64,000 nucleotides of DNA from an uncultured Gemmatimonadaceae bacterium (GTDB taxonomy: Bacteria; Gemmatimonadota; Gemmatimonadetes; Longimicrobiales; Gaopeijiaceae). Positions 15,340 through 28,256 of the stretch are shown one piece after another (within the stretch, counting starts at the first letter, position 1; the number at the start of each line of letters is the position of its first letter). The notes below the pieces were generated by a model. It saw only the letters and a list, made by a program, of their open reading frames with translations, had not been told where the DNA came from and did not search any database. Made by a program: the position numbers and the translations under genes. The stretch covers positions 1,742 through 65,741 of the forward strand of contig CAZJIM010000002.1 in assembly GCA_964546115.1 (NCBI GenBank), given 5' to 3'.

Positions 15340-18114
15340 TCAACCTATGAAATCGGACACCGTCGTCTCGGCGGATCGCCGGGGCGTGGGTTCGACCCTG
15401 GGTTCTACGGCGAATTCGACCATGGTTTCAGCCGTAGATTCAGTCGTCGGCTCGACCATGGGTTCGACCGTGGTCGAGACCGGCAATTTTAGCAGCCCGG
15501 CAGCCGTGCTGACCCGAGCGACCGCCCGGTCGAGCACGGCCGTGGCGCGCATCACTTGCCAAGCGGCGCGGACGCCGATCGCCGCTATGGAAACCGCCGC
15601 GACCAAGACGGTCACCGACAGATCGTAGATGAAAATAGACGCGCTCATGCCGCCGGCTATTAATACCGCCAACGTCACACCCTGAAGGGTACCGACGAAG
15701 CTGGGACGCAGCCGTGCTCGCATCCGGAAGAGACAAGCTCCGTGTTCGTGCTCCTCAACGAGCGTCCGCACGTGCAACCAACCCCAGCGGCCGATCGCCA
15801 AGCTGAAATCCCGGTCGGGACGCCATCCCGCGTCGACGTCGACGATCTGAGTGGGCCGCGAGGCGCGCAGGACCCCGACGAGTTCAGTCAACAGGGTCGT
15901 GTGCGATGCCCACGACTCGCCCCAGAACGAGCGCTCCGTACCGGTGCGGGTCACGAGGCGCGCGGACGCGACGACGTCGCGCAAGGTCGGCATCGGCGAC
16001 TTCCAAGGATGCCGTGTCACGTGCTTCAGTGCCACCGCCGGGGGCCGCGACAGACCGCGGAAGCGCCCTCTGAATCGGGCCAGCGGCTGGAGCACGTGGA
16101 GCCACGCGATGAGGCCTCGATACAAAAAGCTACTCTGTCGCATGGACCAGCGTCCGATAGCGGGCAGACCGTCGAGGTTGGCACGCCAACCGCATCGGGC
16201 ACACTGCGCAAAGGTGACGGTCCCGCCGAGGATCCCGGCGATCAGAGGAAGCCACGCGGCGTCCATGCCTGCCAGCGGCCCAAAGACCCCGATGAGGAGC
16301 AAAACGAACGAGGCGGCCATCCACCCCGGCGAGTGGGGCAGGTAGTGCCACCGATGCGATTGCGTGCTGTAGATCGACGGGAATGCCGCTGTACCCCAAA
16401 CCCCGGTGTTCACTCGCCGCTCGGCCACCGGGCCCTGGAAGGGAAGCGGGCCATAGATACGCCCACGCCACACCATTTGCCCGCCGAGAAACTTCTCGGG
16501 ATGATGCGCGTCGAGCCAAGCCTCCCCCTCGCCATATCCGACCTGCTGACGCCAATACGCTCGCACGCTTGCTCGGCGATGGTGCCAGACCAGCGCCGAC
16601 GGTGCGAAGCCGATGTCCAGATTTTTGGCCTGCAGTCGCCAGCAGATGTCGACGTCGTCGCCGGCACGGACATAGACCGGATTGAAGCCATCGGCGGCCA
16701 AGAGCACGTCCCTTCTGAACGCCATGTTGCAGCCCGGTACGTGCTCAGCGATCCGGTCGTCGAGCATGACGTGGATTGGTTCTCCGGGGGCACGCGCTAC
16801 ACACTGTGACACCCATGGGTCGTCTGCCGGCACGACGTTCGGACCTCCGACGCCGGCGACGTCGGAGGTGAGCAACGGCTGCACCAAGTAGGTCAGCCAA
16901 TCGGGGTCGACACGGACATCGGCGTCGGTATACGCGATGATCGCGCCGGTCGCGGCGGCGAGTCCGACGTTCCGCGCCGCACTCAGGCCGCCGTTCGGCA
17001 CCTCAATGACACGAACGCCGGAATACCCTCGAGCGAGGTCCCCCGTCGCATCGCGCGACCCATCGTCGACGACGATGACCTCCACGTCGGGGTAGGTCAG
17101 TTCATCGAGCGACGTCAGGCAGTCGGCAAGGGTGTCCGCGGCGTTATACGCGCAGACCACCACTGAGACTTTCGGCCACGTAGCGCGCTCGCTGGACGGG
17201 AACGGAGCGCTGGCGAAGACCTCTTGCACTGCAGAGAGCGCCGGTTTGCGGTGTCGCGCCTCATCGACCAGGCCAAAGTTCCAGTCGTCGACCGTCTGGC
17301 CGCCGCGCCACCACTCGTCGGTCCAGGCGTACGCCACCGCACCACAGGCACCTTCGGCAAAAGCAGTCCGGAGATGTGTGGCCGTGATGCACGCTTGCCC
17401 CTTTAGTCCCTCTCGCAAGCTGTCCCCGCCGGCTTCCGCAAGGAGCAGCGGTCGGATACCCGCGAGATGCTGCAAGCGTGCGAGATAGCCTCGGAGCTCG
17501 GTCTCGCGGTGGAGATAGACGTTGTAGGCGAAGACGTCGAACGCATCGAGTTCGAGGTGCTCAGTCGGCGGGAAATTTACATACGTCAACAGGCTAGCGG
17601 GTGCCACGGCCTTCACGTCTTGGTAGAACTCGCGCAGGAACCGCTCGATCCTTCTGTGGCCGTGCCAACGGACGATCCCCGCGGGGATTTCGTTTCCGAG
17701 AGCAAAGAGGAGCGCCGCGGGGTGCTCCGCAAGCCGTCGCACAGTCGTGACGGCGTCAGATTTAATGCGTCGAGTGAGCCTTCTGTCGTCGAGGAATGGG
17801 ATGTGTTGCGGCCACGCCAGTCCGACCATCACGCTGAGACCGTGCCGAAGGGCTTCGTCGAGCAGGGCCAAAGACGGCGGTGTGTAGGTGCGCACCGTGT
17901 TGATGCCGGCGGCCGCCATCAGTGTAAAATCCTGTGCGATGCGCTCCTTCGACGGGAATTGTGCTCCCTCGCTGTCTGGAGCGAAGGTGCCGTAGGCAAC
18001 TCCTTTGATCCAAATACGACGCCCATCGACTTCTAGGAATTTGCCATCCATGCGGACACGGCCAGCGGGCCCGATTAGGGTGCGAGAGCCGCTCACACGG
18101 GTGGTGTCGTCCAC
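15340..18114 (-). CDS. Tri-partite fusion of a clan GH-A glycosidase-like domain, a GT2 glycosyltransferase and a polytopic membrane domain
   Basis: 924 aa. The N-terminal ~300 aa is a (beta/alpha)8-like domain (IWIKGVAYG, ALGNEIP, LLAEAGGDS). The GT2 core is VSVVVCAYNAADTL...VIVVDDGSRD...TDADVRVDPDW...WRQQVGYGEG. The C-terminal third is hydrophobic and ends in a VEP-rich low-complexity tail. Confidence 0.8.
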   Translation of the reverse strand: MDDTTRVSGSRTLIGPAGRVRMDGKFLEVDGRRIWIKGVAYGTFAPDSEGAQFPSKERIAQDFTLMAAAGINTVRTYTPPSLALLDEALRHGLSVMVGLAWPQHIPFLDDRRLTRRIKSDAVTTVRRLAEHPAALLFALGNEIPAGIVRWHGHRRIERFLREFYQDVKAVAPASLLTYVNFPPTEHLELDAFDVFAYNVYLHRETELRGYLARLQHLAGIRPLLLAEAGGDSLREGLKGQACITATHLRTAFAEGACGAVAYAWTDEWWRGGQTVDDWNFGLVDEARHRKPALSAVQEVFASAPFPSSERATWPKVSVVVCAYNAADTLADCLTSLDELTYPDVEVIVVDDGSRDATGDLARGYSGVRVIEVPNGGLSAARNVGLAAATGAIIAYTDADVRVDPDWLTYLVQPLLTSDVAGVGGPNVVPADDPWVSQCVARAPGEPIHVMLDDRIAEHVPGCNMAFRRDVLLAADGFNPVYVRAGDDVDICWRLQAKNLDIGFAPSALVWHHRRASVRAYWRQQVGYGEGEAWLDAHHPEKFLGGQMVWRGRIYGPLPFQGPVAERRVNTGVWGTAAFPSIYSTQSHRWHYLPHSPGWMAASFVLLLIGVFGPLAGMDAAWLPLIAGILGGTVTFAQCARCGWRANLDGLPAIGRWSMRQSSFLYRGLIAWLHVLQPLARFRGRFRGLSRPPAVALKHVTRHPWKSPMPTLRDVVASARLVTRTGTERSFWGESWASHTTLLTELVGVLRASRPTQIVDVDAGWRPDRDFSLAIGRWGWLHVRTLVEEHEHGACLFRMRARLRPSFVGTLQGVTLAVLIAGGMSASIFIYDLSVTVLVAAVSIAAIGVRAAWQVMRATAVLDRAVARVSTAAGLLKLPVSTTVEPMVEPTTESTAETMVEFAVEPRVEPTPRRSAETTVSDFIG

Positions 18115-18165: not shown

Positions 18166-19332
18166 TCATAACCAGTGACCCGAGCGTTTCGCCTTGGTCT
18201 GGACGTAGCGCAGATTGTGGCGGTTGATTCCACCGTAGAGGGGCATGCGTTCCGTGACTTCGATGCCGCTCTCCTCCACCGCCATCACCTTGTTGGGGTT
18301 GTTGGTGAGGAGTTCGACCCGCTTGATGTCGAGGTGGTTCAGGATCGCCACCCCCGCATCGTAACGCCGCTCGTCCGCACCGAAGCCGAGCACGCCGTCA
18401 GCGTCGACCGTGTCCAGCCCATCGGCTTGGAGGTTGTAAGCGCGAATCTTGTTACCCAGTCCGATCCCACGGCCCTCTTGGGCTAGATATACCAACACGC
18501 CTCCGCCCCGGTTCTTGAAGTGCTCTAGGCTCCCGCGGAGCTGCTCCCCACAGTCACAGCGCAAGCTGCCGAAGAGGTCTCCCGTGAGGCACGCCGAGTG
18601 GAGGCGTACCGGCACCGGATCGGGCCATCCTGCGCGAGGTCCGACCAGTACCGCCACGTGCTCCAGGAGGCCCCCGCCTTCTCGGAAGAATACGAAACGG
18701 GAGTGCTCGGCGCCCGCCAAGGGAACCGGCGCCTCGGCCACGGTGGTGATCTCGATTCCGGACCCGGCCGCCGCGTGCTCTGCGTCCTCGTTCGAGACGT
18801 CGAGAACCGTCCCGTCCTCGATCCAGCGCACTAGTAGCGGCGAACCGCGATCCACCTCCACGCTCACCACAGCGGGAAGGAGACGGGCGAATCGCGTGAG
18901 CGCCAACCCTGCCGATTCAGTGGCGCTGGCCGGACGCGTGTTGAAGCGGAGAGAAGAGCCGGACTGGGCGGGTCTTCGTGCCGTCGCCAGTCCCAGAATC
19001 GTCTCCGGAGTTTCGCCGACGTCGAGTCCGATGCTGAGGTTCGCCTCACCCTCGTGTTCGGCGATCCTCATCGCTCGACCGCGATGGCGGGTCACGACCA
19101 GACGAAGGGGTGCACCGAGGGAGCGGAGCCGTTCCAGCCCGTCCACGCCCAGACATTCGACCGCAGCGACCAGGGCGCACGCACCTCGAGCCCCATTGGT
19201 CACGCAGAGAACTCGTCCCTGCCTGAGCTCGAAGAGTCCTCGTTCCGCTTTGTGCGCCATTCGGTCAGGTAGTATCGTTGGGGCCGCGTGTGCCCCGATC
19301 CGGGCGTCGTGGGCTGGCTGGCCGCTCTGCAA
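18166..19332 (-). CDS. GTP cyclohydrolase II paralog with a degenerate DHBP-synthase(RibB)-like N-terminal domain
   Basis: The C-terminal ~190 aa is HSACLTGDLFGSLRCDCGEQL...EGRGIGLGNKIRAYNLQ...LLTNNPNKV, the canonical RibA core with its zinc Cys triad. The N-terminal ~190 aa aligns to RibB (ELRQGRVLCV...ALVAAVE...LRLVVTRHR) but lacks the acidic catalytic motif. An alternative start is ATG 19260. Confidence 0.85.
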   Translation of the reverse strand: MQSGQPAHDARIGAHAAPTILPDRMAHKAERGLFELRQGRVLCVTNGARGACALVAAVECLGVDGLERLRSLGAPLRLVVTRHRGRAMRIAEHEGEANLSIGLDVGETPETILGLATARRPAQSGSSLRFNTRPASATESAGLALTRFARLLPAVVSVEVDRGSPLLVRWIEDGTVLDVSNEDAEHAAAGSGIEITTVAEAPVPLAGAEHSRFVFFREGGGLLEHVAVLVGPRAGWPDPVPVRLHSACLTGDLFGSLRCDCGEQLRGSLEHFKNRGGGVLVYLAQEGRGIGLGNKIRAYNLQADGLDTVDADGVLGFGADERRYDAGVAILNHLDIKRVELLTNNPNKVMAVEESGIEVTERMPLYGGINRHNLRYVQTKAKRSGHWL

Positions 19333-19394
19333 TTCGTCCCGGAAACCGGTTCCGGGGCGATCGGGCGAAAGATGCGCCTGTAGGACTCCGGCTG

Positions 19395-21047
19395 ATGAGG
19401 GTACTCATTAAGATGATCAGGCTCGTGTCCGGGTGGGTGCTTGTCAATGGGCTGCTCTTGACGCCATCGTGGCTCTCGGGCGTGGTGGCGGACGCACCGA
19501 CGTCGGCCTGGCTTTCCCTGGAGGCGGCCCTGATCGTGGGTGCGATGGCGCTCCTGCCACGGCGGCCTTGGAGCCGCGGGCTGGCCTGGGTCTTGGCCAC
19601 GGGAGTCATTCTGTTCGTCGCCATCGCGCTGACGGATGTCGTCTTCCGGGTGAGCCTGAGCCGCTCGCTCAACCTCTCCTTGGACCTCTATCTGCTGAGC
19701 GCCATCTACCGGCTGGCGGTGGGGAATTTGGGGTTCTTGTCGACACTTTTTGGGTTCGGGGCAATCACCGTTTCCCTCGCCCTGTCGGCGTTCGCGATGG
19801 CATGGCTTCTGACGCCGACCGCCTCGGACGGCGGGAAGTCCCTCTCCCGGCCCGTACCGCGGGCCGCAGGGGGAATCATAGTGGGCTCGCTCGCGCTCGG
19901 CCTCATTGGTCTGGCCGCGCCCGCCGTTGGACACCTGATGGCCGCACCCGCCGTTTGGCTCGCCCTCGAGCAGGCGGAGCAATTTGGGGCGACTCGCGAG
20001 GAACAGAAGGCGTTCGCGGCCGAGCTGGAGACGCGCTCGGATGGATTCGCGGACTTGCCGGGACTGTTCTCGAGGCTGGAGGGGCGCAACGTCGTCTTGA
20101 CGTACATCGAGTCCTACGGGATGGCGGCGCTCGAGGACCCTGAGTTCGCGGTGACCATTCGGCCGCGCCTCGACACGATCGCAACACGAATCGAGAGTGC
20201 GGGCCTCCACTTCGCGACCGGCGAGTTTACCTCCCCTACCGTGGGCGGGCAGTCGTGGTACGCGCACGGGACCATGCTCAGCGGACTCTGGCTCGAAAAT
20301 CAGCTTCGCTACGACCTCCTGCTCGCGAGCGAGCGGAAGACGCTGGTCGACGACTTCCGTCGCGCCGGCTACCGCACCGCAACCGTGATGCCCGCCATCA
20401 CGACGAGCTGGCCGGAGGGGCTCCGACTCGGCTACGACGACGTGTATTCGAGGCCTTCCATTCCCTACGCCGGCCCGCCCTTCTACTGGGTCACCGTCCC
20501 GGATCAGTTCACGTGGTCGTTCCTCGGGGACCTCATCAAGGAGGCGACAACCCCGCTCTTTTTGGAAGCGGCGATGGTGAGCAGCCATGCGCCCTGGACC
20601 CCCGTCCTGCCCCTCGTCGATTGGGACTCCGTGGGGGACGGAGCGATTTTCGGACCCTACCGAGAGGATGGGTATCCGCCCGAGAAACTCTGGTGGGATG
20701 TCCAGGCCCTGCGCCAGGGTTACGCTCGCACTCTCGACTACTCGCTGCTGGCGATGGCCGAGTTTGCCGAGTGGTTCCTGAATGAGCGGACGCTCCTGGT
20801 CGTGGTTGGGGACCACCAGGCGGCTCCCTGGGTGACGGGGGCGAGCGACGCGGATGTTCCGGTGCACGTGATCGCCCACGACCCCGCCCTTCTCAAGCCC
20901 TTCTTCGAGTGGGGGTTCCTCCCCGGCGCCTTCCCCAACCCGGAGGGCACGCCTCCGCGAATGGACGAGTTCCGCGAGTGGTTCCTGCGGGCCTTTAGCG
21001 GCGGCACCGTCGACTCCACCACTCTTTTGACGAAGGAGGGAAGGTGA
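19395..21047 (+). CDS. Membrane-anchored sulfatase/LtaS-like (alkaline-phosphatase superfamily) transferase
   Basis: Start chosen at ATG 19395 (MRVLIKMIRLVSGW...). There are about 5 N-terminal TM helices, followed by a catalytic domain with NVVLTYIESYG, FTSPTVGGQSW and VVVGDHQAAPW. The overlapping 653-aa minus ORF is an Arg/Pro-rich shadow. Confidence 0.7.
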   Translation: MRVLIKMIRLVSGWVLVNGLLLTPSWLSGVVADAPTSAWLSLEAALIVGAMALLPRRPWSRGLAWVLATGVILFVAIALTDVVFRVSLSRSLNLSLDLYLLSAIYRLAVGNLGFLSTLFGFGAITVSLALSAFAMAWLLTPTASDGGKSLSRPVPRAAGGIIVGSLALGLIGLAAPAVGHLMAAPAVWLALEQAEQFGATREEQKAFAAELETRSDGFADLPGLFSRLEGRNVVLTYIESYGMAALEDPEFAVTIRPRLDTIATRIESAGLHFATGEFTSPTVGGQSWYAHGTMLSGLWLENQLRYDLLLASERKTLVDDFRRAGYRTATVMPAITTSWPEGLRLGYDDVYSRPSIPYAGPPFYWVTVPDQFTWSFLGDLIKEATTPLFLEAAMVSSHAPWTPVLPLVDWDSVGDGAIFGPYREDGYPPEKLWWDVQALRQGYARTLDYSLLAMAEFAEWFLNERTLLVVVGDHQAAPWVTGASDADVPVHVIAHDPALLKPFFEWGFLPGAFPNPEGTPPRMDEFREWFLRAFSGGTVDSTTLLTKEGR

Positions 21048-21682
21048 CAAAGGGCTTCGGCACCGGCGCCCGGCTCTTCCATTGGTTGGTCGTGCTACTC
21101 TTGCTGGTACAGATCCCCGCGGGAATCGCGATGATCGCACCCGCCCTCGAGCAGGAGTCAATCGACCGGCTCTTTGTCTTGCACAAAGGGCTCGGCGTCG
21201 TACTCCTCGTGGTCGTGGCGGCCCGCGTACTGTGGCGGCTGACCCACCCGGCGCCGCCGATGTCGGAGACCTTCCCCGAGTTGGAGCGACGCATGGCGAC
21301 CATGGCGCACTGGGTCATCTACGTGGTCCTGATCGTGGTTGCGGGGAGCGGATACGTGCACGTGGTCGGGGATGGCTTCCCCATCGAGATGATGGACGCG
21401 CTCAGGCTACCGACGCTGTTACCTCTGATGCCCGGGGTCGCCTCGTGGGCGTCCCTCGTGCACCGATTCTCGACGTTCTTGCTGATCATCCTGGTGTCAT
21501 TTCACGTGGCAGAGGTCCTGCGGCACCATCTAGTGCTGCGCGACGAGACGCTGGGCCGGATGTGGCCGCCGCTTGGCGGGCCAGAGCCCCCTCCCGACTC
21601 CGAAACGAAGCCGGAGAGCGGGACCAAGACCGAGGGAGTGGCTAACCCCGAAGGAGGGGCCGGCGGTGTGGGGCCGAGTTGA
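21044..21682 (+). CDS. Cytochrome b561 family protein
   Basis: 212 aa with 4 TM segments. Has the conserved His pattern (ARLFHWLVVLL, LHKGLG, MAHWVIY, HRFSTF). The GTG start overlaps the upstream TGA (GTGA). Confidence 0.75.
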   Translation: MTKGFGTGARLFHWLVVLLLLVQIPAGIAMIAPALEQESIDRLFVLHKGLGVVLLVVVAARVLWRLTHPAPPMSETFPELERRMATMAHWVIYVVLIVVAGSGYVHVVGDGFPIEMMDALRLPTLLPLMPGVASWASLVHRFSTFLLIILVSFHVAEVLRHHLVLRDETLGRMWPPLGGPEPPPDSETKPESGTKTEGVANPEGGAGGVGPS

Positions 21683-22430
21683 GTGCTGGCTCGGCCTGGT
21701 TCGCTCGCTGATCATCTACTGGCGGCCGGGCCGGCAGCGCGGGCTGCGGGAGCTGTACCGCCCGTTCGTCGGGGCGGGAGACCTGGTTTTCGACGTGGGG
21801 GCGCACCTGGGAGACCGCACCGCCGCGTTCCGAAAATTGGGCGCGCGGGTGGTGGCCTTGGAGCCCCAGCCAGCCGTGTGCCGCTGGCTCGTGCAGATCG
21901 TCGGGCGCAGCCGTGACGTTTCAGTTCGGCCGGAGGCGGTGGGGCGCGCGGTCGGTACCGCCCGCCTGGCCCTGAGCCACCGCACGCCGACCATGTCCTC
22001 CCTGGCCGAGGACTGGCGAAGCACCCTGCCCGCACAGAACCCCGGCTTCCGCCGCGTGCGCTGGGACGACTCGTTGGAGGTGCCGGTGACGACCCTGGAC
22101 GCGCTGATCGAGGACCATGGCCTCCCGCGCTTCTGTAAAATCGACGTGGAAGGGTACGAAGCCGAGGTGCTGGCGGGCCTGAGTCACCGCATCCCCGCGC
22201 TCTCCGTGGAATTCTTGGGAGGGGCTCTGGACGTCGCCGAGGCGTGCGTGCGGAGGCTCGAGGTGCTAAGTGGGTACGAGTTCAACGCGATCGAGGGAGA
22301 GGAGAGGAGATTCATGTCGAAGCAGTGGCTTACGGCTAATGAGATGGTCGCCTGGCTGAGGCGTGACGGGGGGAGTGTTTCTTCGGGAGACGTCTACGCC
22401 CGGCTGACCGAGTGCTCGAACCATGGCTGA
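21666..22430 (+). CDS. FkbM-family SAM-dependent methyltransferase
   Basis: FDVGAHLGDRTAAF...VVALEPQP...FCKIDVEGYEAEVL are typical FkbM motifs. Start placed at GTG 21666, a 17-nt overlap with the b561 gene. The track ORF from 21573 would overlap by 110 nt. Confidence 0.7.
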   Translation: MWGRVECWLGLVRSLIIYWRPGRQRGLRELYRPFVGAGDLVFDVGAHLGDRTAAFRKLGARVVALEPQPAVCRWLVQIVGRSRDVSVRPEAVGRAVGTARLALSHRTPTMSSLAEDWRSTLPAQNPGFRRVRWDDSLEVPVTTLDALIEDHGLPRFCKIDVEGYEAEVLAGLSHRIPALSVEFLGGALDVAEACVRRLEVLSGYEFNAIEGEERRFMSKQWLTANEMVAWLRRDGGSVSSGDVYARLTECSNHG

Positions 22431-23238
22431 CGGGGCGATCCGTTGGTGGCAAACCCTGACGACGGTGGAGGCGGATGCGATCGAGGCAAGCGATCCGGTG
22501 GTCGTTCTGCCCCTCGCCGCAGTCGAACCGCACGGATCTCACCTGCCCCTCTCCACCGGCCTCGAGATCGGGCTCGGCCTGCTCTCGGAAGCGTTCGGGC
22601 GGCTGCCGGATGGCTTTCCGGCCTGGGCTCTGCCGCCCCAAGCGATCGGCTGCAGCCGAGAACACTCGCGCTTTGCGGGAACGCTTTCTCTGGAGCCGGA
22701 GCAGCTCTCCTCCCTGATCGAGGCGGCGGGCGAGGCTCTCGCACGAATCGGCGTGCGGCGCCTCGTGCTGAGCAACAGCCACGGCGGGAACCGGCACGCG
22801 CTGGAGATCGCCGGTCTACGGCTTCGCGACGAGTTGGGTATGCTGGTCGTGCACGCGAGCTGGTTCCGTTTTCCCCAGCTGAAAGACGTGGACCTCCCGG
22901 ATGGGGAGTGGCGCCACGGCATCCATGGCGGGGCGGTGGAGACGGCCATGATGATGCATCTCCGGCCGGATCTGGTGAGCGCGCCCGAAGCGGCCCAGAC
23001 CCGCTCCTTCGGTGAGGAATTTGAGAAAACGCTACGGTTGGTGGCTCCGGAGGGTTCGACCTCGTTCTCCTGGCTGGCCGGCGATCTAAATGTCGATGGA
23101 GTGGTCGGGGACGCGACCTTGGCCAACGCCGATCTTGGGGCACGGTTGGTGTCGCACTACGGAGCGTTCCTGGCCGACGTAATCGAGGACGCGCGGGCGT
23201 TCCCTCTGGACCGGCTGGAGACCCACGCCCGTGAGTAG
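22423..23238 (+). CDS. Creatininase-family amidohydrolase
   Basis: 271 aa. Family motifs are VVVLPLAAVEPHGSHLPLSTG, SNSHGGN and HGGAVETAMMMHL. The start overlaps the FkbM stop by 8 nt. Confidence 0.85.
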   Translation: MADGAIRWWQTLTTVEADAIEASDPVVVLPLAAVEPHGSHLPLSTGLEIGLGLLSEAFGRLPDGFPAWALPPQAIGCSREHSRFAGTLSLEPEQLSSLIEAAGEALARIGVRRLVLSNSHGGNRHALEIAGLRLRDELGMLVVHASWFRFPQLKDVDLPDGEWRHGIHGGAVETAMMMHLRPDLVSAPEAAQTRSFGEEFEKTLRLVAPEGSTSFSWLAGDLNVDGVVGDATLANADLGARLVSHYGAFLADVIEDARAFPLDRLETHARE

Positions 23239-23261: not shown

Positions 23262-24152
23262 TTGTCTGAGATCGCAGCCGCGCTGGACGAGGTTGCGGCC
23301 TGGACACTGGTACGCGCCGCCGTGGCGCGTGATCTCCCCGAGCCCGGGCCTCGTCGTGTAGTGCATGGCACGCGCTCGGAGCTCTGGCTTGAGCTGAGCG
23401 AGTCCGGGCGCTGGGAGACGTCGGCTCCGCCCACGCCGGCGGCTCGAGATCTGCTCGACCTCTATCTGCCGCTCACCCGTGGACCCGACTTGGTCATCGG
23501 GCAGCTCGGCCAGAGCCTGGACGGCCGCATCGCAACGGTGAGCGGGAAGTCCCACTACATCACCGGACCAGAGGACATCCGCCGCCTCCACCGACTTCGC
23601 GCTCTGGTCGACGCCGTGATCGTGGGGGTCGTCACCGTGGCGCTGGACGATCCGGAGCTCACGGTGCGGAAGGTGAAGGGCGAAAATCCGGTCCGGGTGG
23701 TGCTCGATCCGGACGGCCGCCTCGGGCAGGACCGTCGGATCTTCTCGGACGGATTGGCCCCGACGATCGTGGTGCGAGGCACCGGGGTGGATGATCTCCA
23801 AGCCACAGGGGATGGCCCCGATGATGCCAAAGCCACAGGGGATGGCCTCCCGGAAGTCCTCACCCTTCCCGCCTCCGGCGCCGAGGGCTTCGAGCCGAAG
23901 GGTGTTCTGGAAGCGCTCCGTGCCCGCGGGCTGCGACGGGTGCTGGTGGAGGGGGGAGGGGTCACGGTGTCGAGGTTCCTCAAGGCCGGCATCCTCGACC
24001 GACTCCACCTGACCGTCGCACCTATGTTGATGGGCTCGGGCCGTCCGGGGATCACCCTGCCGCCGATCGAGACCCTGGACCAGTCGCTCCGGGCTCGGTG
24101 CCGTCACGTACCCCTAGGAGACGACCTCCTCTTCGATCTCGACCTGAGCTGA
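23262..24152 (+). CDS. RibD C-terminal-domain (DHFR-like) reductase, no deaminase domain
   Basis: 296 aa. Has GQLGQSLDGRIAT...ITGPEDIRRLHRLRALVDAVIVGVVTV..DDP.LTVR...RVLVEGGGVTVSRFL...LHLTVAPMLMGSG. It contains an in-frame 30-bp tandem duplication. Confidence 0.85.
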   Translation: MSEIAAALDEVAAWTLVRAAVARDLPEPGPRRVVHGTRSELWLELSESGRWETSAPPTPAARDLLDLYLPLTRGPDLVIGQLGQSLDGRIATVSGKSHYITGPEDIRRLHRLRALVDAVIVGVVTVALDDPELTVRKVKGENPVRVVLDPDGRLGQDRRIFSDGLAPTIVVRGTGVDDLQATGDGPDDAKATGDGLPEVLTLPASGAEGFEPKGVLEALRARGLRRVLVEGGGVTVSRFLKAGILDRLHLTVAPMLMGSGRPGITLPPIETLDQSLRARCRHVPLGDDLLFDLDLS

Positions 24153-24185: not shown

Positions 24186-25016
24186 TCAGGGACTGTCTAG
24201 GCCCCGGGGGAGGGCCAACAGGTCCACGTGTCCCACATCGAGCCCAGGCGTCAAGGCGGTCGTTGCGCGACGGCGGTCTGCCCAACTCTGGATGAGCGCA
24301 GCGTCGTCGGGACGCTGCTCGGAGGCGGCCGCCCCCCACCCGTCGATCAACGCGCGAGCCAGCGAAGTGTCGGCGGCGCCCAAGCGCCAGGGGCTCGGCC
24401 GGAGCCGGGTGTCGTATCCGGCCGCGCGGAATGCGCGCTCCGCCGCGGGGCCGCCCGCCGGTCCGAGCGCAGGTCCCATGCCCTTGTCCCGGAGCTGATG
24501 GCTCCGCACTGCCTCGGCGACGAGCGCGTCGTCGGGGTCGGGGTCATCCCAGGTCATGGTGCCATCCCAGGTGAGGGCAAGCAGCGCCCCGCTCCCGGCT
24601 GCTAGGCACGCTGCTACGAGCCGCTCGAGCCACTCGTGGGTCACCAGGTCCAGCAGCGCGGAGGCTGTCACGAGGTCCGCTCCGAGGACGAGCTCCAGCC
24701 CTTCCTGGTCCAGCTCGCCGACGACGCACTCCGCCCCACCCCCCCCGGCCATTCCGTGGACTGCGACGACCGTGTGGGTCGCCCGTTCAAGCAGAGCGGC
24801 GTCCCTGTCCACCAGCGTCCATGTCTGCTCGCCCGGGAGCCGGGGCACGAGGTAGCGGAGGTTCGAACCGGTGCCGCTACCCAGGTCGAGCACGCGCCGG
24901 CTCGGCCGGGACTCCCACCACTCGGCCAGGGGGACCACGAGATCGGCGGCGCGGGAGCGGTGATCCACCGGCTCGCGCAAGGCCAGCCAGTCCGGGGTGA
25001 AGGTTTCCTCACCCAC
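24186..25016 (-). CDS. Class I SAM-dependent methyltransferase
   Basis: Start placed at GTG 25016 ([16 protein letters not shown]...), overlapping the upstream GT stop by 8 nt. SAM motif is VLDLGSGTGSNLRYL. The 332-aa track ORF extends into the GT gene. Confidence 0.75.
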   Translation of the reverse strand: MGEETFTPDWLALREPVDHRSRAADLVVPLAEWWESRPSRRVLDLGSGTGSNLRYLVPRLPGEQTWTLVDRDAALLERATHTVVAVHGMAGGGGAECVVGELDQEGLELVLGADLVTASALLDLVTHEWLERLVAACLAAGSGALLALTWDGTMTWDDPDPDDALVAEAVRSHQLRDKGMGPALGPAGGPAAERAFRAAGYDTRLRPSPWRLGAADTSLARALIDGWGAAASEQRPDDAALIQSWADRRRATTALTPGLDVGHVDLLALPRGLDSP

Positions 25017-26106
25017 CCGGAGAGATCTCCCGAACGGCAAGCTCGAAGGCCAGGGTCGCGTCGCCCCAGGTAGAGAGAGACCGGCCGTGGCGGAGCGATC
25101 CCTCCGCAAGCTCGGTCCGACGCGCGGCCCCCCCCGGGTCCGAAAGCAGCTCCTCCAGCGCAACCGCCAGAGCCGCCTCGTCACCGGGGGCCACGAGCAT
25201 ACCGGCCTCGGGGGGTACGGTGTCCGGAACTGCTCCTCCGCGCGTGCTCAAGACCGGGAGTCCGCGGGCGAGAGCCTCGGACAGCACCATGCCGTAGCCT
25301 TCGTAGTGAGTCGCAAGCACGAAGATCGAAGCCGAGTGGTAGAGCCCGTCGAGCTCCAGGGCCCCGAGCTCGCCGGGGAAGTCGATTCGGTCCTCCAGCC
25401 CCAGTGCTCGCGTCAGCTCCAGCACCGAGCCGGCGAATTCCGGCGCCCGCGTCAGGGTCCCTGCGCACAGGCAGCTCCAGGGGAGAGCAGTGACGCGGGC
25501 GAGGGCGCGAACCAGCACGTCCTGCCCCTTTCGGGGGATCACCGAGCCCACACACAGAAGGCGGGGAGCCTCGCCGGGCCCGGGGCCTACCGCGGCTCGC
25601 GCCGCGTCTGTCCCGGGCGGTACGATGCGGATGCGCGAGGCGGGGACGCCGTACTCCGCGAGCCGGCTCGCGCTGAACGCGCTCGTCACAACCACGCCGG
25701 AGCACTGTGCCAGAGACTCGCGCTCCAACCCGGTGAGGCGAGCGTGCTCGGCGGTGTCCAATCCCGTCTCGTCGGCAAGCGGGTGGTGAATGAGAGCCGT
25801 CAGCCGTAAACGCTCTCGGTGCACCCGGAGAGGGTCGGGAAGCGGGCTCATAGCGAGGCCGTCCAGGACAACCCGGGCACCTTCGGGGATCCCCTCTAGG
25901 GTGCGAGCGAGGCTAGACTCCGCGCACGTGTCGCCCGCGGAGAATCTGCCCTCGAGCACATGGGTGATCACGTTCCAGCCCAGCGCTGTCAGGCCTTCGG
26001 CGATCCGTGCGTCGTAGAGGTAGCCGCCGGTCCGCTGGCCGAGCGGCCCCGGAACGATCAGGTGGAGATCCCCCGCGCTCAAACCGACCCTTCGAAGGAT
26101 GCCCAT
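25009..26106 (-). CDS. GT-B fold glycosyltransferase, family 4
   Basis: 365 aa. Has [18 protein letters not shown] and the C-terminal [29 protein letters not shown] (E-x7-E region). Its 5' end overlaps the PTPS-like gene by 28 nt. Confidence 0.85.
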
Positions 26107-26477
26107 GCCACATGCGACTCGTGAAGCGTCATGTTTAGTCGCTGGATGCCTCGAGCCTCGTCCCCGAGGCGGCCATCATGAATTGCCTCCACGAGCCGGT
26201 CGAAGATCGTGCGCGCCAGGAACTCCGTTGTCGTGTTCTGCCCCGTGAACGCGGCCTCCTCGTCCAGGTTTCGGAAATCAAGCTCCCCGAGGATCTCTTT
26301 AAGCGTCGCGCTGGCGAGTCCGATGTCGACGACCAGGCCGTCGGCGTCGAGTTCCGGGCGGCGAAAGGTGGCGTCCACGATGTAGGTGGCACCGTGGAGA
26401 TTCTGCGCTGGACCAAAGGTCTCACCGCTGAAGCTGTGGGCGATCATGAAATGGTCGCGGACGTTCAGGCTATACAA
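26079..26477 (-). CDS. PTPS/QueD-like T-fold protein lacking canonical zinc and catalytic residues
   Basis: 132 aa. T-fold pattern FMIAHSF...[13 protein letters not shown]...DFRNLDEE...[12 protein letters not shown] replaces HGH, there is no catalytic Cys, and LDFRNL replaces LDHxxL. Confidence 0.85.
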
Positions 26478-26485
26478 GGCCCCTC

Positions 26486-27475
26486 CTAATAGCAGATTCG
26501 GTGGCAGAGTTCGTCACCTGGGTCTTTGCTCAGGTGTGCGAGCACCTCGGGGAGGTCCTTGAAGTCACTTTCCCCTGTGATGAGAGCATCAAGGTTGGGG
26601 TCTCGAAGGAGATCCAGTGCCAACTCCATCCTACGAGACCAGGTCCACCGGGGTGATCGCATTGACGGCAGACGTCCCACCTGACTGCACTTCACGGAGA
26701 GACGGCGCGAATGGAAGCCCTCTCCGAGAGGTAGGCATACAGACTCGTTTCCGTACCAACTCACTTCGACGATTGTGGCCTCTCTCCCTGCGGACTCCAG
26801 CGCTCCTCGGAGCCCGCTCGGGCTTCCGCTTGCATGGAACACCAGGTCCGCATCTGCCTTTGGCGGGGAGTCCGTGCTGAAGGGCACGCCCAGCGCTTCG
26901 GCCTGGGACTCTCTGGACGCGTTCAGGTCGATTGCTGTTACCTGAGTGCCGGGAATCTGACGGCATAGCCAGGAGATGAGCAGTCCTATCACTCCCGCGC
27001 CGATGACGACGATCCGGTCTCCGGTTGAAGGAGCTCCGTCCCAGACGGCGTTCACCGCCGTTTCCATATTTGCCGCCAGGACGGCTCGGGCAGGTGGCAG
27101 ATCATGAGGAAGAGGGGTTACTGCTGACTCCTGCACCAGATATAGGTCCTGATGGGGATAGAGGCAGAACACCGTCTGGCCCTCCAGGTTAGCGCCCGAC
27201 GAGTCGGCTTGCTCCACCACCTCTCCCACGCTCGAATACCCGTACTTGATAGGGCCGGGGAGGGTGCCTTCCTGGAACGGCGCTCGCATCGTCACATACT
27301 GTGACGGGGGCACCTCCCCCTTGAACACCAGGGACTCAGTTCCACGGCTGATTCCGGAGAAGAGCGTTCGCACTAGCACCTCGTGCCCTTGCCTCGAAGG
27401 CAGATCTCTCCTCAAGATTTCTCCTTGGCCCGGCCCCTGAATCCAGAACTGCCGGGAACTCTTCGTTTTTGACAT
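26486..27475 (-). CDS. MDR-superfamily dehydrogenase, BchC-like subgroup
   Basis: 329 aa. GroES-like N-domain with [12 protein letters not shown] in place of the GxCxxD zinc-Cys motif. The Rossmann motif is [10 protein letters not shown]. Confidence 0.85.
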
Positions 27476-27509
27476 GTCCCTTCAGCTCTCTGGATGCGGG
27501 TCGGTCCCC

Positions 27510-28256
27510 ATGTCTTCAACCAACCACGGTTCCATGGTTCCGTTCACAGCAGGCGGTGCTCTTCACCGATCGGGAGGAGACCTTGGTGTCGCAGTTCTTC
27601 CGCTCCTGGCGGTCACCGCTGCAACTTGGCGGCTCTTTGGCCTCCCTGCCAGCTACCTGATTCAGGTAGTGGCGGTCTACGTAGCAATGTCCGCGTTGGT
27701 GGTGTGGCGTTCACCGGCGCCCTCTACGACTCGGGGCCTGGGTGTCGCGAACCGGATCACCCTGGGTCGGGCGACGCTCGTTCTTCCCGTAGCAGCACTT
27801 GTGTTCCATCCTCAGATCGTCGTGGGTGCGGCGTACTGGTGGATCATTCTCTGTTCCGCTCTGGCGATGCTCCTGGACAGTCTTGATGGGCGCGTGGCTC
27901 GGCGGACTGGGACGACCTCTGCCTTCGGAGCCGGGTTCGACATGGAGCTGGACGCGTTCTTGATCCTAGTACTCTCGGTCCTCGTCTGGCAGAGTGGGAA
28001 AGTGGGTCCATGGGTCCTTCTGATCGGTGCCCTTCGCTACCTTTTTATCGCCGCTGGGTGGATGTGGCCGAGGCTCAGAGGGAAGTTGCCCGAGAGTCAA
28101 CGGAGAAAGGCAGTGTGCGTGGTTCAGGGAATTGTGCTGTTGGCATGTCTGGCGCCGATGATTCCTTCGGTGATGGCTTCGGCGGTGGCCGCGGGAGGCT
28201 TGGCGCTACTCATGTACTCATTCGCGGTCGACGTTGCCTGGCTGGTGACCCACTAG
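27510..28256 (+). CDS. CDP-alcohol phosphatidyltransferase family protein
   Basis: Signature D-G-x2-A-R-x8-G-x3-D-x3-D is present as LDSLDGRVARRTGTTSAFGAGFDMELDA, with about 6 TM helices. The start is uncertain among ATG 27474 (overlaps the divergent start), 27510 and 27534. Confidence 0.8.
   Translation: MSSTNHGSMVPFTAGGALHRSGGDLGVAVLPLLAVTAATWRLFGLPASYLIQVVAVYVAMSALVVWRSPAPSTTRGLGVANRITLGRATLVLPVAALVFHPQIVVGAAYWWIILCSALAMLLDSLDGRVARRTGTTSAFGAGFDMELDAFLILVLSVLVWQSGKVGPWVLLIGALRYLFIAAGWMWPRLRGKLPESQRRKAVCVVQGIVLLACLAPMIPSVMASAVAAGGLALLMYSFAVDVAWLVTH

Follow-up and report, generated by a model that had tools for sequence, protein, structure and literature searches.

The DNA analysed here, hereafter the window, is a stretch of 64,000 nucleotides from contig CAZJIM010000002.1 of an uncultured Gemmatimonadaceae bacterium (GCA_964546115.1). 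Its minus strand carries a four-gene operon encoding, in order of transcription, a dehydrogenase of the medium-chain dehydrogenase/reductase (MDR) superfamily, a small protein of the 6-pyruvoyl-tetrahydropterin synthase (PTPS)/QueD type, a GT4 glycosyltransferase and an S-adenosylmethionine (SAM)-dependent methyltransferase. The second gene, the subject of this report, is the ortholog of Streptomyces coelicolor SCO6650 and falls into PTPS-IV, a subfamily of the PTPS/QueD T-fold family (COG0720, PF01242). A check of the open reading frames (ORFs) placed it at 26079..26477 on the minus strand, with 132 codons and a TTG start, and all motif strings quoted in the original prediction for this DNA, including ESHVAWASF, were found in this frame.

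Membership in the PTPS-QueD T-fold superfamily is seen both in the profile match and in the fold. The protein matches the PF01242 PTPS profile with an E-value of 5.4e-25 and 88.2 bits (cut-off 22.4) over profile positions 2-120 of 121, and its AlphaFold model (mean predicted local distance difference test score, pLDDT, 86.8) has the beta-beta-alpha-alpha-beta-beta layout of a T-fold, with the FGPAQ loop (residues 23-25) modelled at low confidence. The PTPS/QueD-like T-fold assignment of the original prediction is borne out by these results. A Foldseek search with the model returned PDB entry 3D7J, the structure of SCO6650, as the top match (template modelling score 0.82, E 2.6e-19), with E. 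coli QueD and animal, Plasmodium and Pyrococcus PTPS structures at lower ranks. At the sequence level 3D7J aligns over residues 1-130 with about 70% identity (E 1.8e-52) and the family profile matches SCO6650 with an E-value of 1e-62, so that the homolog named in the original prediction is real and very close. SCO6650 was reportedly described in its 2008 structure paper as a zinc-free hexamer inactive as a PTPS.

FGPAQ has been cited as the PTPS-IV signature (PMC5445326), and residues 21-25 of the window protein read FGPAQ. Among 201 relatives from at least four phyla, on which the conservation figures below are based, the F, G and A of this motif are present in 100%, the P in 99.5% and the Q in 97.5%. 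Two further PTPS-IV hallmarks are likewise present, namely similarity to SCO6650 over the full length and a neighbourhood containing GTP cyclohydrolase II (GCH II) and a RibD C-terminal-type (RibD_C) reductase. The original prediction had given neither the subfamily name nor this published neighbourhood. The NCBIfam models for QueD (TIGR03367, 47.9 bits, cut-off 89.25) and PTPS (TIGR00039, 37.9 bits, cut-off 125.5) were matched below their thresholds, and relatives of the protein are annotated in public sources as 6-carboxytetrahydropterin synthase.

Residue equivalences were obtained by aligning the family profile to human PTPS (3I2B), C. elegans PTPS (2G64), QueD and PH0634, and a second alignment of the window protein with two canonical paralogs of its own genome gave identical equivalences. 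In these alignments His14 is the first zinc His, Ala24 lies at the catalytic Cys position, His28-Gly29-Ala30 at the HGH position, Asp67-Phe68 at the Asp-His relay position and T83-T84-E85 at the T-x-E motif, while Glu120 is the Glu that anchors the pterin ring. The loss of the catalytic Cys, earlier read from the segment GPAQNLHGA, was therefore correctly called. As the protein is devoid of cysteine, its catalytic Cys cannot simply have shifted, and the agreement of the profile and paralog alignments removes the proviso attached to the original prediction that the catalytic residues might be present at displaced positions. Two of its other claims also hold, each with a nuance: the third zinc His is indeed replaced (Ala30, with Ala in 200 of the 201 relatives) and the canonical three-His ligand set is broken, but His14 and His28 are retained; likewise the canonical LDHxNL relay, here LDFRNLD, has lost its His to Phe68, but Asp67 is present in the window protein. 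The position of the Glu in ExxHGH is occupied by Gln25, and none of the motifs CxxxHGH, CxxxxxHGH or ExxHGH occurs. With these three residues (third zinc His, catalytic Cys, dyad His) gone, the protein should not act as a 6-pyruvoyl- or 6-carboxy-tetrahydropterin synthase. What it does retain is the side of the pocket that holds a 2-amino-4-oxopyrimidine ring, formed by Glu120 and by T-T-E85 of the neighbouring subunit.

This residue pattern is fixed across the family. Ala24, His14 and Glu120 are present in 100% of the relatives, and Ala30, His28 and Glu85 in 99.5%; each position of the NTTTE85 motif is conserved in at least 96%. The dyad Asp position holds Asn in 54% and Asp in 40%, and 153 of the 201 sequences contain no Cys anywhere. 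Within a sample of fourteen sequences that are 70-92% identical to the window protein, including sequences labelled Thauera, Acidobacteriota and Pseudomonadota, 59 of the 132 positions (about 45%) are invariant, with Arg7, Asp8, His9, Asp35, Asp51, Asn70-Leu71-Asp72 and Ser121 as invariants specific to the family; His122 is nearly invariant (98% of the 201 relatives). The former catalytic positions have thus become fixed as small residues and show no drift, which argues for a selected new function and not for a decaying pseudoenzyme.

A protein search among 5.8 billion proteins gave at least 8000 candidates, the best of those listed being 70-98% identical to the window protein, and relatives were found on at least about 600 genomic stretches among approximately 186,000 species genomes, the nearest locus among the matches listed belonging to a Longimicrobiales metagenome-assembled genome (86% identity). 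Within its own phylum the gene occurs in only two of 201 sampled genomes. In a poorly resolved gene tree built from 132 columns, Gemmatimonadota, Acidobacteriota and Pseudomonadota were interleaved and only Actinomycetota formed a clade; vertical inheritance was rejected on account of this interleaving, which together with the patchy occurrence fits a mobile accessory cluster. Outside bacteria, three PTPS-IV-like domains follow one another in tandem in proteins of the haptophytes Emiliania huxleyi and Gephyrocapsa oceanica (P0121, P0122, P0131, P0139, P0143 and P0147), which makes each protein effectively a covalent trimer, with the motifs LHG[C/I]TY, NTTCE and RESDVA and a degenerate middle repeat. 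Two of these proteins extend at the C-terminus into a region that is weakly but collinearly similar to the methyltransferase of the cluster (pairwise E 0.004).

The gene is closely packed between its operon neighbours. Its TTG start lies 8 nt past the TAG stop of the dehydrogenase gene and a Shine-Dalgarno-like GGAGGGG stands between the two, an arrangement that suggests that the two genes are probably translationally coupled. At the other end, the last 28 nt of the gene are shared with the start of the glycosyltransferase gene. The N-terminus of the relatives begins identically to that of the window protein, which supports the TTG start at position 26477.

Gene neighbourhoods were compared over 80 loci from named genomes (Gemmatimonadota, Acidobacteriota, Alpha-, Beta- and Gammaproteobacteria, and Actinomycetota), and neighbours were counted in the 63 of them, drawn from four phyla, that span at least 18 kb. 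The features of the window, and four genes of the same genome that are discussed below, are listed in Table 1.

Table 1. Features of the PTPS-IV cluster and of a second pterin-related locus in the host genome.
Feature	Position	Strand	Evidence or remark	Occurrence
Two-domain GTP cyclohydrolase II paralog	window 18166..19332	minus	PF00925 E 8e-53; NF006456 E 4.5e-95	36/63 loci
Sulfatase/LtaS-like (alkaline-phosphatase superfamily) membrane protein	window 19278..21047	plus	PF00884 E 1e-5	33/63 loci
Cytochrome b561-type membrane protein	window 21044..21682	plus	PF01292 E 4e-27	6/63 loci
FkbM-family methyltransferase	window 21573..22430	plus		32/63 loci
Creatininase-family amidohydrolase	window 22423..23238	plus	PF02633 E 2e-55	39/63 loci
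RibD C-terminal-type reductase, no deaminase domain	window 23262..24152	plus	PF01872 E 4e-40; TIGR01508 E 3e-32	55/63 loci
SAM-dependent methyltransferase (Methyltransf_25/23), last core operon gene	window 24186..25184	minus	Pfam	61/63 loci
GT4 glycosyltransferase	window 25009..26106	minus		62/63 loci
PTPS-IV (SCO6650-type) T-fold protein	window 26079..26477	minus	132 aa, TTG start, no Cys; ORF, PF01242 and 3D7J match	
MDR dehydrogenase/PTPS-IV junction	window 26478..26488	minus	TAG stop (26488-26486), Shine-Dalgarno-like GGAGGGG, TTG start; read from the sequence	
MDR-superfamily dehydrogenase	window 26486..27475	minus	Pfam, NCBIfam	62/63 loci, adjacent
CDP-alcohol phosphatidyltransferase-family membrane protein, divergent from core operon	window 27474..28256	plus	PF01066 E 1e-17	54/63 loci
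PTPS-I/III hybrid, 131 aa	contig C45 5503-5898	minus	KCERLHGH (CExxHGH)	
Short-chain dehydrogenase/reductase (SDR), sepiapterin-reductase-like	contig C45 5938-6750	minus		
GTP cyclohydrolase I (FolE)	contig C45 6674-7324	minus		
PTPS-II, 138 aa	contig C45 7345-7761	minus	CSNPNWHGH (Cx5HGH)	

The order dehydrogenase followed by PTPS-IV is kept in 62 of the 63 loci, and the glycosyltransferase gene starts in most of its loci at the same overlapping offset, while the cytochrome b561 belongs to the cluster in Gemmatimonadota loci only. No other protein of the cluster is as well conserved as PTPS-IV (62-86% identity, compared to 35-83% for its neighbours), and only in the nearest relative (L001) do others come near its level. 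The association of PTPS-IV with PF00925 and PF01872 had already been found in 561 sequences (PMC5445326, 2017). No riboswitch or other known RNA element was detected between window positions 17500 and 29500 at E-values up to 1. The longest ORFs of the dehydrogenase (start 27475, minus) and of the CDP-alcohol transferase (start 27474, plus) overlap by 2 nt of their start codons (27473-27476), which would leave no intergenic promoter region; homologs match the transferase only from about residue 80-90 onwards, which places its true start probably further downstream. In some metagenomic representatives the C-terminus of the dehydrogenase is joined to PTPS-IV (among P0215, P0257, P0184, P0265 and P0142, P0165, P0169, P0193 and others), and in other representatives the first ~100 residues of PTPS-IV are joined to the glycosyltransferase. 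The latter hybrids were rejected as functional fusions, since in many of them the PTPS-IV part breaks off near residue 100, which resembles a frameshift artefact of the overlapping genes; it is plausible that a few of the dehydrogenase read-throughs could be real fusions.

The neighbouring enzymes give some indication of the substrate. The MDR dehydrogenase has the Rossmann motif GAGVIG and, as its best named relative, BchC, an enzyme that oxidises a secondary alcohol next to an aromatic ring; its PDB matches were confined to the NAD-binding domains of polyol and butanediol dehydrogenases. It lacks the Cys and His ligands of the catalytic zinc (GISRGTE replaces GxCxxD, and GYS replaces GHE), a replacement conserved in 77 homologs, so that both co-translated proteins have lost the usual zinc site of their family; the dehydrogenase is nevertheless annotated as zinc-binding. 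The nearest solved relatives of the RibD_C protein are 2,5-diamino-6-ribosylamino-pyrimidinone 5'-phosphate reductases (6P8C, E 1.5e-25; 2AZN, E 3e-23). The glycosyltransferase is closest among named proteins to polyol-phosphate and phospholipid head-group enzymes (MshA, GlcNAc-PG synthase), and the CDP-alcohol transferase weakly matches PgsA and PIP synthase.

The GCH II of the window keeps the two-domain architecture found in most loci (N-terminal domain of about 190 aa) and carries a Tyr at the product-determining position (KIRAYNLQ). Among 45 cluster-linked copies, 44 have such a Tyr in the context K(I/L)RAY, the exception being the Streptomyces locus with Met (KLRAMALQ, L075 10832-11287). 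This Met is that of the SCO6655 variant, which stops at the formylated product. In RibA enzymes this Tyr goes with formate release. A general scheme in which GCH II makes a formamidopyrimidine (FAPy)-type first product that the creatininase-family protein deformylates is not supported, because of the Tyr in 44 of the 45 copies, and the latter protein is thus probably not, in general, a FAPy deformylase. GCH II is absent within 10 kb in 27 of the 63 loci and RibD_C in eight. Most genomes without a nearby GCH II showed only RibA-type matches elsewhere, and the pathway can apparently draw on the housekeeping GCH II where the cluster copy is missing. A second, RibBA-type GCH II was found in the window's own genome, on contig C8. 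Two proteobacterial carriers, Vreelandella aquamarina (L009) and Variovorax humicola (L035), have a CofH match above the NCBIfam cut-off, with a single-domain GCH II about 3 kb from CofH in Variovorax humicola.

The host assembly measures 1.82 Mb at an estimated completeness of 91%, compared to 2-4.6 Mb in sampled relatives of the phylum. This small genome retains an accessory cluster of about 10 kb that is present in only two of the 201 sampled phylum genomes. It also encodes, on contig C45, the two canonical paralogs of Table 1, one of them a hybrid of the CExxHGH type described in PMC5041015; together with PTPS-IV the genome therefore has three COG0720 paralogs of three subfamilies. A role of PTPS-IV in the canonical queuosine, folate or tetrahydrobiopterin pathways was rejected, because the genome already possesses PTPS-II beside FolE and the SDR, in addition to the PTPS-I/III hybrid.

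From the observed family membership, residue pattern, fixation across phyla and conserved neighbourhood we infer a substrate, an order of steps and a chemistry, which are set out here as a proposal. With somewhat more confidence than doubt, we regard the window protein as a catalytic, zinc-independent enzyme that would act, within the cluster, on a pyrimidine or pterin ligand derived from GTP; our confidence in any single chemistry is much lower. The cluster product probably starts from GTP. Binding of a pterin- or pyrimidine-like ligand, as suggested in the original prediction, agrees with the conservation of Glu120 (100%) and Glu85 (99.5%) and with the clustering with GCH II and RibD_C. In the proposed route GCH II would convert GTP into 2,5-diamino-6-ribosylaminopyrimidinone-5'-phosphate, which the RibD_C reductase would reduce to the ribityl form, and the zinc-less BchC-like dehydrogenase would then oxidise a hydroxyl of the side chain. 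PTPS-IV, holding the 2-amino-4-oxopyrimidine ring by Glu120 and T-T-E85, might subsequently carry out an isomerisation (tautomerisation), a ring closure or an elimination on the activated side chain, with His14, His28, Asp8 and His9 as possible acid-base groups. The carbonyl made by the dehydrogenase would serve as the electron sink, a part played in canonical PTPS by zinc and Cys; oxidation of the ribityl C2', for example, could lead to closure to a dihydropterin. The glycosyltransferase, the methyltransferases and the CDP-alcohol phosphatidyltransferase would then modify the product further, perhaps turning it into a head group of the phospholipid type. In its most complete form the proposal is clearly more tentative: PTPS-IV may be the signature enzyme of a laterally mobile pathway that turns the GCH II product into a glycosylated and methylated aminopyrimidine or pterin polyol joined to a phospholipid, a new class of head group or envelope decoration, with PTPS-IV performing a zinc-free ring closure or elimination after the oxidation by the dehydrogenase.

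Several points weigh against this proposal. The sole published functional remark on PTPS-IV, which refers to unpublished data, links it to F420 (PMC5041015). Only 36 of the 63 loci have a GCH II gene within 10 kb, and genomes lacking it there mostly show just RibA-type matches, so that the link to GTP is contextual and not obligatory. A route that reduces and then reoxidises its intermediate is chemically roundabout, and the creatininase-family protein has no explained role if GCH II already releases formate. It is also possible that a metal site has been rebuilt in PTPS-IV from the invariant His9, His122 and Asp8, and its conservation could be due in part to oligomer interfaces and not to catalysis.

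Among the alternatives to a zinc-independent enzyme, a non-catalytic T-fold is unlikely, although it is the one we would take most seriously. Such a protein would bind or scaffold a labile aminopyrimidine or pterin intermediate, or organise the dehydrogenase and the glycosyltransferase, as might be expected of a protein in which three of the classical catalytic features are gone while the ring-binding Glu120 and T-T-E85 are the best conserved canonical ones. The tight coupling of the gene to both neighbours and the dehydrogenase-PTPS-IV read-through fusions among metagenomic representatives point the same way, although these fusions may be frameshift artefacts. A scaffold would not account, however, for former catalytic positions that are fixed as Ala without drift, for the new family-specific invariant polar residues (Arg7, Asp8, His9, Asp35, Asp51, Asn70, Asp72, Ser121 and His122) or for His14 (100%) and His28 (99.5%), which are essentially invariant with no zinc to hold. 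On the strength of the invariant Ala-for-Cys and Ala-for-His replacements and of the invariance of about 45% of positions in the fourteen-sequence sample, a working enzyme is tentatively favoured over a scaffold. More doubtful is a ligand unrelated to GTP, such as another heterocycle or a sugar derivative, with GCH II and RibD_C nearby for some other reason. GCH II is indeed missing within 10 kb in 27 of the 63 loci and RibD_C in eight, and where no GCH II is near, the genome mostly has just the housekeeping type; nevertheless, the T-fold anchor residues specific for the 2-amino-4-oxopyrimidine ring are invariant, and an independent study reported the link to PF00925 and PF01872 for 561 sequences (PMC5445326).

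A role in riboflavin, Fo or F420 biosynthesis seems improbable to a still greater degree. The unpublished-data remark in PMC5041015 would support F420, CofH was found above cut-off in five of fourteen carrier genomes, and GCH II, the creatininase-family protein and RibD_C together look like the archaeal route of the ArfA/B/C type that leads to the ribitylaminopyrimidine precursor. Yet CofH, the Fo synthase, was not found in the other nine of the fourteen genomes, among them that of the window (91% complete) and a single-chromosome Longimicrobiales assembly, and a general F420/Fo role is for this reason not supported; moreover, neither Fo/F420 nor riboflavin synthesis has a step for the glycosyltransferase, the methyltransferase or the CDP-alcohol transferase, and a separate RibBA-type GCH II is present in the genome. 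Least probable of all is that PTPS-IV remains a PTPS or QueD of the canonical type, acting on dihydroneopterin triphosphate with a metal and a base supplied by other residues. Although the PF01242 match, the public annotation of relatives as 6-carboxytetrahydropterin synthase, the two remaining zinc His and the invariant His9 and His122 could be read in this way, the protein has no Cys, its third zinc His and dyad His are replaced, and it scores below the NCBIfam cut-offs for QueD (47.9 vs 89) and PTPS (37.9 vs 125). In addition, PTPS-II and the PTPS-I/III hybrid are already present by FolE, no FolE, QueC or QueE occurs in the PTPS-IV neighbourhood, and SCO6650 itself is reported to be zinc-free and inactive as a PTPS.

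Part of this picture is already on record, namely the SCO6650 structure (released 2008) the PTPS-IV name with its FGPAQ signature, and the GCH II/RibD_C neighbourhood (published in 2017), and the loss of catalytic residues in PTPS-IV is not new in itself. A search of the literature on SCO6650, on neighbouring SCO genes and on combinations of the enzyme names found no characterisation of the cluster product. The labels 6-carboxy- and 6-pyruvoyl-tetrahydropterin synthase are routinely given to PTPS-IV in error, and a correct label avoids the false inference of queuosine or biopterin capacity. With 62-86% identity across four phyla, it is among the most conserved function-unknown proteins of this analysis. 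Its reaction, once solved, would add a new branch to the metabolism derived from GTP and would show a T-fold enzyme working after the loss of both metal and nucleophile.

Compared with QueD/PTPS-I and PTPS-II, the window protein shares the T-fold, the Pfam family, the first two metal His, the T-x-E motif and the ring-anchoring Glu, but lacks the catalytic Cys, the third zinc His and the dyad His; identity to these proteins is about 20-30%, depending on the comparison, and the gene context is different. The PTPS-III and PTPS-VI proteins, which replace FolB, are COG0720 members in which the chemistry was changed through the residue before HGH. In published PTPS-III proteins HGH is intact and the residue used is a Glu (ExxHGH; PMC5041015), whereas the window protein, with AQNLHGA, has neither Glu nor Cys at this place and an incomplete HGH. 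The closest known system is that of SCO6650 (3D7J), which shares with the window protein FGPAQ..LHGAT, HESHVAW and an NTTTE-type motif (NTSTE in SCO6650). A Streptomyces locus also has the gene order of the window (CDP-alcohol transferase, MDR dehydrogenase, PTPS-IV, GT4 glycosyltransferase and methyltransferase), with GCH II nearby. The two systems differ in their hosts, the window belonging to a Longimicrobiales-like Gemmatimonadota bacterium with a small genome (1.8 Mb), and at the product-determining position of the cluster GCH II, with Tyr in the window and Met in Streptomyces. Relative to the Streptomyces system, the window cluster furthermore adds the cytochrome b561, the FkbM methyltransferase and the LtaS-like gene.

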